Source: Nymphon striatum (Eukaryota). From it: a DNA stretch of 64,000 bases. The stretch spans positions 15,735 to 79,734 of the forward strand of contig JABFOP010000225.1 in NCBI GenBank assembly GCA_016618385.1. Reading direction: 5' to 3'. The position numbers and the translations under genes were made by a program. The notes beneath the pieces are model-generated. The model ran no database searches and was not told where the DNA came from. It saw only the letters and a program-made list of their open reading frames with translations. Positions 11,119 to 12,044 of this stretch are shown here, one piece after another; position 1 is the stretch's first letter; each line of letters starts with the position of its first letter.

Positions 11119-12044
11119 CATGTAGTGAGGCAGAATTTGTTCTCCCTCGCTCACCTTCGACGAGCTCCTCCTCTTATTCAAATTACGTTATTGCTTTTGC
11201 TATTTAAACTCTGTACTGTTCTCATCCAGTAACTTATCCAATAAACGTTTTACAATTCACATACATTCTTCTCTCTTGCAACAAGACCTTCACTGGTGAC
11301 CACTGACGTTGACGTTTGATTTGAACATGCCATCTTCGATATCATCAAATGGAGAGTCAATTAAGCCACCTTCAATGCTACACTGATGCCTATAATTTCT
11401 TTCATGTCTACTCCAACGTTTCCTCAACACTTTCTCCACCATGTTCACTTAGACTTCTAACAACATTCTCCGTATCGTCAACAGCCGTATCGTCCGACAA
11501 GAGCTACCGCCTGAAGCGCCAGCACAGACTGGCCATTCACAAGTTCCTCTCGCCGTAAACATATTCCTGTAAGAAGTCCGCCTCTATTCGTGTTCTGAAA
11601 AGAGCTACCGCCTGAAGCGCCAGCACAGACTGGCCATTCACAAGTTTTTCTCGCCGTAAACATCTTCCTGTAAGAAGTCCACCTCTATTCGTGTTCTGAC
11701 AAGAGCTACCACCTGAAGCGCCAGCACAGACTGGCCATTCACACGTTTCTCCTGCCGTAAACATCCGCCAGCAAGTTTTAATGTTATATTTCTGTGATTT
11801 TTCTTTTGTTGTTGTTGCAATTTTACTTGTTATTTCTTTACATGCTTGCTCCACTCTTAGGAGGAGAGCTGTGTAGTGAGGCAGAATTTGTTCTCCCTCG
11901 CTCACCTTCGACGAGCTCCTCCTCTTATTCAAATTACGTTATTGCTTTTGCTATTTAAACTCTGTACTGTTCTCATCCAGTAACTTATCCAATAAACGTT
12001 TTACAATTCACATACATTCTTCTCTCTTGCAACAAGACCTTCAG
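11119..12044 (+). mobile_element. TRIM-like miniature LTR retroelement. It has 174-bp LTRs (TG...CA), a PBS-like TGGTGACCACTGACG after the 5' LTR, a PPT GGAGGAGAG before the 3' LTR, about 3 x 90-bp internal tandem repeats, and a 4-bp TSD GGCA.
   Basis: Near-identical direct repeats 11119-11292 and 11873-12044. Flanks gggcA|tgtag ... cttca|ggcaa. Confidence 0.7.

Follow-up and report, generated by a model that had tools for sequence, protein, structure and literature searches.

The 923 bp between positions 11121 and 12043 of the Nymphon striatum DNA analysed here are probably a non-coding LTR retroelement that belongs by structure to the TRIM class, is mobilised by proteins supplied in trans and carries a leader left by read-through into its own primer tRNA. 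"The window" below means the whole stretch of DNA that was analysed, 64,000 nucleotides of contig JABFOP010000225.1. TRIMs are defined as elements below about 1000 bp with terminal repeats of 100-250 bp, a primer-binding site (PBS), a polypurine tract (PPT) and no ORF (PMC6934838, PMC10886601). This one copy is shorter than 1000 bp, has TG...CA repeats in the 100-250 bp range, a PBS, a PPT and a target-site duplication (TSD), and lacks gag and pol. The preliminary description called it TRIM-like, and every structural feature that can be tested on one copy agrees with that name. The leader is the unusual feature. Apart from it this animal TRIM is ordinary mobile DNA.

Anatomy of the element

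The argument begins with the repeats. Positions 11121-11292 and 11872-12043 are direct repeats that are identical at 172 of 172 positions, and they enclose a non-coding interior of 579 bp. The edges are sharp, with A versus G at the base before the repeats (-1) and C versus G at the base after them (+1). The repeats were originally put at 174 bp; the identical pair stands, but its length is 172 bp. Both repeats start with TG and end with CA as claimed, and the claimed 4-bp TSD is exact (GGCA at 11117-11120 and GGCA at 12044-12047). The duplication spans the LTR pair and not each LTR singly. A 5-bp TSD was also considered, but this reading fails at the flanks of the element. The insertion site without the element would read ...CTAAGGGCAAATGGCATGG....

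When the element is searched against the 64-kb window with BLASTN only the two LTRs and the internal array match, so the window holds no further copy and no solo LTR. The same search answers the concern that the repeats could be part of a larger tandem array, which they are not. A 15-nt inverted match between the start of the LTR and 10914-10928 was dropped as chance level (by our own estimate about 0.5 such matches are expected at this region size).

The TATA and AATAAA motifs of the LTR come in a sensible order and at a sensible spacing. Going solely by the spacing of these motifs, U3 would cover about 11121-11227, R about 11228-11262 and U5 about 11263-11292. The coordinates of all features are collected in Table 1.

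Table 1. Features of the element, from left to right, followed by exons of the host gene in the window
Feature	Position	Strand	Basis or remark
Left TSD, GGCA	11117..11120	.	same as 12044-12047, directly outside the LTR
5' LTR, 172 bp, TG...CA	11121..11292	+	100% identity to 11872-12043
TATTTAAA (TATA) in 5' LTR	11201-11208	+	motif match only
Inr-like CCAGT in 5' LTR	11226-11230	+	motif match only; 25 nt downstream of TATA
AATAAA in 5' LTR	11240-11245	+	motif match only
1-nt spacer (C) from LTR CA end to PBS	11293..11293	+	read from sequence
PBS core TGGTGACC	11294..11301	+	pairs without mismatch with the 3'-terminal 8 nt of mature tRNA-Trp (...GGUCACCA)
Stretch antisense to mature tRNA-Trp, spanning nt 76 (CCA) to about nt 29	11294..11359 (~66 nt)	+	alignment
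6-nt tandem duplication TGACGT TGACGT	11304..11315	+	inside the tRNA-derived leader, at the acceptor/T-stem junction
Internal region, no known relative	11360..11492	+	no match elsewhere in window; no Rfam or Pfam match
Tandem array, 101-bp unit, 2.6-2.7 copies, GC 51%	11493..11765 (start 11493/11499)	+	repeat analysis
T-rich 3' internal region	11766..11858	+	GC 35% for 11766-11871
Polypurine tract AGGAGGAGAG	11859..11868	+	followed by CTG 11869-11871, then the 3' LTR
3' LTR, 172 bp, same as 5' LTR	11872..12043	+	TATTTAAA 11952-11959, AATAAA 11991-11996
Right TSD, GGCA	12044..12047	.	same as 11117-11120
Weak WD40 matches	~13.1-15.1 kb	-	profile match
APAF1_C exon	28455-29003	-	profile match
P-loop exon	43410-43628	-	seen by eye
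DUF4062 exon	45712-46029	-	profile match

The PBS and the tRNA-Trp leader

A PBS-like sequence had been reported 2 nt past the 5' LTR. The PBS is real, but its core starts 1 nt past the LTR. HIV-1 also has a 1-nt gap between the LTR CA and the PBS. The core matches the 3' end of tRNA-Trp at 8 of 8 positions (9 of 10 if extended), CCA included. Among 25 cytoplasmic tRNA 3' ends tRNA-Trp is the best at this site with 8 nt, against at most 5 nt for the others. The 8-mer TGGTGACC is unique on the plus strand of the window. Both PMC6379413 and PMC5029493 list the tRNA-Trp complement TGGTGACCCCGACGTGAT. The complement used here, TGGTGACCCCGACGTGATTTGAACACGC..., was checked against the human tRNA-Trp oligonucleotide (PMC6379413) and the ALV/EAV PBS primer (PMC5029493). 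It must be noted that the tRNA-Trp reference is human and may not equal that of the host; nt 28-75 were checked against PMC6379413 except for the anticodon, which is engineered there.

This sequence is far more than a PBS. The similarity runs on for 40 further tRNA positions beyond the core, and the whole reads as a degenerate antisense tRNA-Trp of about 66 nt. The alignment has 43 matches and 5 mismatches over 48 tRNA positions, and 5 insertions add a total of 18 nt. The leader covers the 3' two-thirds of the mature tRNA: the acceptor 3' strand, the T arm, the variable loop and the anticodon arm including the anticodon. The matching blocks are 11294-11303, 11311-11314, 11317-11337, 11342-11346, 11350-11351 and 11354-11359. 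The longest exact block, 11317-11327, is complementary over all its 11 nt to the T loop and stem. The largest insertion relative to tRNA-Trp is 7 nt, and most of it is the TGACGT duplication.

The similarity holds when the core is left out of the calculation. Without the 8-nt anchor the local alignment of the leader scores 37, while 4,977 random segments of the window score 15.2 +/- 2.9 with a maximum of 30 (z about 7.5). When 22 tRNAs are compared with both strands of the whole window the leader comes third among 56,232 comparisons, behind two genuine tRNA-like heads near 22 kb. Paired with the 3' 50 nt of tRNA-Trp the leader gives a predicted duplex of -56.7 kcal/mol, versus -21.9 +/- 3.7 for shuffles. 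The leader has no significant match to the tRNA-Trp D arm or 5' acceptor strand, which means that the copy is partial. Rfam and ARAGORN are silent at the leader, and this is to be expected because the copy is partial and interrupted.

The CCA end is the key to where this sequence came from. CCA is not encoded by eukaryotic tRNA genes. Since the leader includes CCA, and since this end adjoins the LTR, the source would be a mature tRNA at the priming site and not a tRNA gene or a SINE. An antisense insertion of a tRNA-derived SINE is rejected on the same two grounds, as the position of the CCA end beside the LTR leaves no space for a SINE body.

One difficulty is that past the first 8-9 nt the PBS has one mismatch and insertions relative to canonical metazoan tRNA-Trp. 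Judged from the alignment, such divergence would be surprising in a very young insertion, unless 8 nt are enough. A PBS of 8 nt was accepted for ta-TRIM and its candidate partner (PMC4558846).

The antisense stretch could also be a working extended platform for primer binding and not a fossil. This idea competes only with the fossil part of our reading and is compatible with an origin by read-through. Its appeal is that the blocks are colinear with the tRNA and include both the anticodon and the 11 nt that match the T loop and stem throughout, and that the predicted duplex is so much stronger than that of shuffles. There are precedents too in boxes 0, 1 and 2.1 of Ty1 (PMC3592414) and in the lentiviral over-extension sequence (PMC13191261). 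The Ty1 boxes lie downstream of a 10-nt PBS and help the primer to anneal (PMC3592414). However, the 11-nt block spans tRNA position 58, and native m1A58 forms no Watson-Crick pair (PMC13191261). The insertions also split the duplex into short pieces. We consider it doubtful that the leader is a working platform, though of the alternatives it is the likeliest. The leader RNA (11228-11500) folds no more stably than shuffles (z +1.45), and we claim no packaging structure.

The interior

Internal tandem repeats were part of the preliminary description, which put them at about 3 x 90 bp. The array exists, but it is 2.6 copies of a 101-bp unit. Units 1 and 2 are 94% identical, and the identity of unit 3 is 78-79%. 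The claim that the interior lacks coding capacity holds up. The longest sense ORF in the element is 69 aa, and none of 8 ORFs on both strands has a Pfam match at E <= 1. An antisense ORF of 131 aa is the tandem array read as protein. It has one database relative, the Nymphon striatum protein model P0001, and the match extends over one 101-bp unit. Sequence like the 101-bp unit thus appears to occur at another Nymphon striatum locus, where the P0001 gene model reads through one unit. A match between the tail of P0001 and the leader region was dropped as not significant, because 151 of 2000 shuffles score at least as high.

No tRNA, 5S or hammerhead family is found by Rfam in 10900-12250 at E <= 10, and ARAGORN calls no tRNA in the element. 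A TRIMp3 identity (Cassandra, Helenus or Ajax) is rejected since neither program finds a tRNA or 5S in the element, and a retrozyme is rejected since no hammerhead family appears at that threshold.

The purine tract claimed before the 3' LTR is there. With its 10 nt (11859-11868) it is short but in the usual range, and it stops 3 nt short of the LTR and so does not abut it. A 10-mer made up of purines alone is found at 0.4% of the positions in the window. Retroviral integrases trim two bases from each end. If a TG dinucleotide was trimmed here, the unprocessed end of U3 would lie at 11870-11871, 1 nt past the purine tract.

Proposed life cycle, age and probable origin of the leader

The element cannot encode its own proteins, so it would need the machinery of a partner for reverse transcription and integration. 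Pol II would start in the 5' LTR (TATA at 11201, start near 11228), and the transcript would be polyadenylated in the 3' LTR past AATAAA to give an R-U5-...-U3-R RNA. tRNA-Trp would pair with TGGTGACC 1 nt past U5 and prime minus-strand DNA, and the purine tract at 11859-11868 would prime plus-strand DNA. Finally, a Gypsy-type integrase would insert the DNA by its CA ends at a cut staggered by 4 bp, and the GGCA duplication would result.

Because the LTRs are identical the insertion appears to be young, less than about 2-9 My at rates of 5e-9 to 1e-9 substitutions per site per year. The array is older than the insertion and was carried in the copied RNA, since its units differ by 6% or more and the LTRs do not differ at all.

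We argue that the leader most likely arose when plus-strand strong-stop DNA was over-extended into the primer. Plus-strand synthesis normally halts at m1A58 (PMC8599865). If this modification is missing, copying proceeds into the tRNA, and the resulting DNA ceases to complement the minus strand (PMC8599865; PMC13191261 for the run-on). Minor plus-strand products end at nt 55, 54, 37 or at the tRNA 5' end (PMC13191261). In an ancestor of this element plus-strand strong-stop synthesis would have run past the m1A58 stop and used the primer tRNA as template as far as about nt 27-29. The copy in the leader ends at about nt 29, adjoining tRNA position 26. Position 26 is commonly m2,2G in eukaryotic tRNAs and is then a strong block to reverse transcriptases. 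A point against an origin by read-through is that synthesis would have to pass two positions of the tRNA, 58 and 37. The latter is a G in this tRNA-Trp, presumably m1G in mammals. The copied tRNA sequence would have become a heritable part of the element, as would the 101-bp array, and both predate the insertion.

A rival history would dispense with a propagating TRIM family. The copy could be a one-off defective provirus, made when a full-length Gypsy-like RNA was aberrantly reverse-transcribed in a single cycle in which the primer tRNA was over-extended and a forced template switch deleted gag-pol, and the crippled product would then have integrated a single time. There is only one copy in the window, and identical LTRs with a TSD fit one recent integration. 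An over-extended tRNA copy is also the product of a failed plus-strand transfer, in which the cDNA "becomes uncomplementary" (PMC8599865). However, the leader has decayed (5 mismatches, 18 inserted nt and a 6-nt duplication) while the LTRs have 0 differences in 172. The units of the array differ by 6-22%, and the repeat unit is also present at another Nymphon striatum locus. Since leader and array are decayed and the LTRs are identical, leader and array are older than this insertion and were passed on by one or more earlier generations in the genome. A one-off provirus is improbable in our judgement. Inheritance of the leader from an earlier generation of the element is the history we prefer.

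Could the repeats be something else?

One can also doubt that this is a transposon at all. A local tandem duplication of 751 bp (1.23 copies) would do for the repeats, since any X-Y-X duplication yields two identical direct repeats, and an assembly artefact might mimic one; PMC12220506 describes the draft assembly of Nymphon striatum as the only one and as made from pooled individuals. Neither event explains why the repeats have TG...CA ends, a TSD outside them, a CCA-bearing tRNA complement at +2, a purine tract at -3, and TATA and AATAAA motifs. About 1e-9 is the joint chance that a given repeat pair has TG and CA ends, a 4-bp TSD and, no more than 6 nt away in each case, 8 nt that match a tRNA 3' end and a purine run of 10 nt; this estimate uses the base and word frequencies of the window and takes the features as independent. 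There is no third partial copy either. We regard duplication or artefact as extremely unlikely. It is a negligible prospect that two solo LTRs from one family inserted independently at a distance of 579 bp, with unrelated host DNA in between: solo LTRs are common derivatives of TRIMs (PMC3532108), but neither repeat has its own TSD (GGCA/CTGG for the 5' LTR, GCTG/GGCA for the 3' LTR) while the outer flanks match, and the sequence between them has a PBS at its start and a purine tract at its end. A single inserted LTR element is the reading that we carry forward.

Comparison with known elements

Among described elements, PbTRIM of ants comes closest in architecture (Zhou & Cahan 2012, PMC3532108). 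It too has an arthropod host, LTRs of 152-184 bp and a 4-bp TSD. A PBS and a PPT likewise bound its non-coding interior, and it shares a TATA in U3, young copies, and insertions in or near genes (PMC3532108). It differs in its length of 480-781 bp, in a PBS of about 15 nt for tRNA-Leu, in that no internal array is reported, and in its 67 full copies and 159 solo LTRs (PMC3532108). The element described here has 923 bp, an 8-nt core for tRNA-Trp with a 66-nt leader, a 101-bp array and one copy, and it is likened to PbTRIM by architecture and not by sequence.

Plant TRIMs (Witte et al. 2001) share the size below 1000 bp, the 100-250-bp repeats, the PBS, the PPT and the lack of an ORF (PMC6934838, PMC10886601). 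They use a tRNA-Met primer and have a 5-bp TSD (PMC3532108), in contrast to the tRNA-Trp and 4-bp TSD found here. By this comparison the 4-bp TSD and tRNA-Trp point to a partner unlike that of plant TRIMs, of Gypsy type, and to an independent origin. Arthropod Gypsy families use tRNA-Trp, and only Gypsy shares similarity in the PBS region with animal Helenus TRIMs, which have 4-bp TSDs (PMC10886601). A 4-bp TSD with a tRNA-Trp primer would fit a Gypsy-type partner on these analogies.

The ta-TRIM of taeniid cestodes and lennie, its partner candidate, also have an 8-nt PBS to a tRNA 3' end and a TSD of 4-5 bp (PMC4558846). Unlike the present element, ta-TRIM uses tRNA-Leu, has a named partner candidate, is massively expressed and is multi-copy (PMC4558846). 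The TRIMp3 elements Cassandra, Helenus and Ajax contain sequence derived from small RNAs, animal Helenus has a 4-bp TSD and some families use tRNA-Trp (PMC10886601). In TRIMp3, however, the tRNA or 5S is in sense and provides a Pol III promoter within the LTR (PMC10886601), whereas here the tRNA sequence is antisense, outside the LTR and at the PBS. LARDs and retrozymes are also non-coding, non-autonomous LTR elements, but LARDs exceed 4 kb (PMC4558846) and retrozymes have hammerhead ribozymes in their repeats, of which none appears here at E <= 10.

For the leader itself the nearest parallels are the lentiviral and spumaviral primer over-extension sequence (PMC13191261) and boxes 0, 1 and 2.1 of Ty1 (PMC3592414). 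Both are colinear with the primer tRNA and complementary to it beyond the 18 nt at its 3' end (10 nt in Ty1). The extent is different. The viral sequence adds a few nt (to 54/55) and Ty1 has three short boxes, while here 43 of 48 positions match, as far as the 5' strand of the anticodon stem. We found no antisense tRNA leader of such length described for TRIMs in the literature searched.

Genomic context

The element is antisense to a NACHT-WD (NWD1/TEP1-like) gene, whose exons lie on the minus strand of the window (Table 1), and it sits either in an intron or just past the 3' end. A protein search with the host exon at 28452-28979 gave no match. About 190 bp from the element is a copy of a 1.3-2 kb repeat that occurs four times in the window. 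LINE reverse-transcriptase tails are present too. Their identity to many protein models of Nymphon striatum is 78-92%, and to any other protein about 45-55% at most, which places the window in that sea spider or a close relative. Among the larger ORFs of the window that were scanned (>=70 aa) there is no LTR-type gag, protease, RNase H or integrase (rve).

A 56-aa reading frame of the LTR has 0 matches among 1.84 billion representative proteins. Exact-pattern scans with the 5' end of the LTR against metagenome contigs, with the LTR-PBS junction against GTDB and with the repeat core against viral and metagenome contigs also gave 0 matches, which says little given that these collections are essentially prokaryotic and viral. 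The Nymphon striatum draft was reported to have just 7% repeats, a figure quoted in PMC12220506. The window is visibly packed with repeats, against that 7%.

Significance

Animal TRIMs are easily missed. They are known from Hymenoptera, cestodes and bivalves, with Helenus-type elements in several other groups (PMC10886601). For sea spiders and other chelicerates the literature we searched holds no TRIM report, apart from a brief mention in a paper on a mite genome. This element is a new animal TRIM with an unusual leader, and its significance is modest. Since the copy is young, LTR machinery that uses tRNA-Trp would have been active recently in this lineage.

The leader goes far past the usual 18-nt PBS. 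It would be a genomic example of a side reaction that is mostly known from the biochemistry of retroviruses, and on the strength of one copy it suggests a possible route by which miniature elements arise. We propose this route tentatively, and in its full form we think it less likely than not: over-extension past m1A58 would give a non-homologous 3' tail, an aberrant transfer of that tail would delete gag-pol, and the result would be a miniature mobilisable element whose tRNA blocks help to recruit its primer. If this were general, primer over-extension would be a mechanism by which TRIMs are born. It would also supply an intermediate for the old "strong-stop DNA" idea of tRNA sequences fused to retroelements.

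Genomic context of the TRIM

The TRIM, a non-coding LTR retroelement, lies antisense to a NACHT-WD (NWD1/TEP1-like) host gene, and it is either intronic or just beyond the 3' end of that gene. The exons are dispersed over 13115-51270 on the minus strand, separated by very large introns that are dense in repeats.

The window also contains a 1.3-2.1 kb repeat family whose copies are 89-97% identical. The family has its own internal tandem array with units of about 134-135 bp, and on the upstream side of the TRIM one copy stops about 190 bp short of it. Two copies carry an ORF of 139-199 aa (MNKLKPK...) that has no Pfam match. 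We leave this family unclassified.

Features of the window around the TRIM
Feature	Position (strand)	Remarks
1.3-2.1 kb repeat, copies	6111-8186; 9654-10933 (-); 29825-31902; 33112-34524 (-)	
1.3-2.1 kb repeat, fragments	39857-40236; 41032-41227	
Separate tandem array	8366-9119	~190 bp
NACHT-WD gene, WD40	~14731-15066 (-); ~13115-13576 (-)	weak matches
NACHT-WD gene, APAF1_C helical domain	28455-29003 (-)	
NACHT-WD gene, P-loop GRPGSGKT	43410-43628 (-)	by eye
NACHT-WD gene, DUF4062 exon	45712-46029 (-)	
DUF4062-resembling stretch	50977-51270 (-)	by eye
tRNA-like pair	21925-21993 (+); 22060-22132 (-)	inverted, ~70 bp between
~250 bp repeat, five copies	4866-5155; 41461-41720; 50587-50819; 58199-58448; 62124-62341	
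LINE reverse transcriptase, two 3' fragments	27168-27674 (+); 35283-36023 (+)	
Remnants of several other transposons	39164-39559 (+); 40235-40981 (+); 49250-49687 (-); 51495-51800 (+); 44741-45439 (-); 53725-54030 (-)	
Three successive long open frames	62398-63999 (+)	165, 150 and >215 aa; extend past window end

tRNA-like sequences and transposon remnants

The tRNA-like pair at ~22 kb is unrelated to the primer-binding site of the TRIM, which is of the tRNA-Trp type. The two sequences are about 90% similar to each other. One of them, at 30 bits, reaches Rfam's gathering threshold for tRNA, but ARAGORN calls no tRNA at either. The pair probably represents heads of a tRNA-derived SINE or two pseudogenes. 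The five copies of the ~250 bp repeat are 67-83% identical. This family is likely a tRNA-derived SINE, since a Gly-like tRNA aligns to one end of it.

The domains among the other transposon remnants are hAT dimerisation, THAP and a Tc1/mariner-type HTH. Two further pieces, seen by eye only and neither with a Pfam hit, are a GIY-YIG-like ORF and a reverse-transcriptase fragment with YVDD; taken together they suggest a Penelope-like element. None of the three open frames running off the window has a Pfam match either; they may encode an unclassified transposon protein.

The two LINE fragments are 94.8% identical to each other, and they share 78-92% identity with parts of many gene models from Nymphon striatum. 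These matches identify the host, and they show that the gene models concerned have absorbed transposon sequence.
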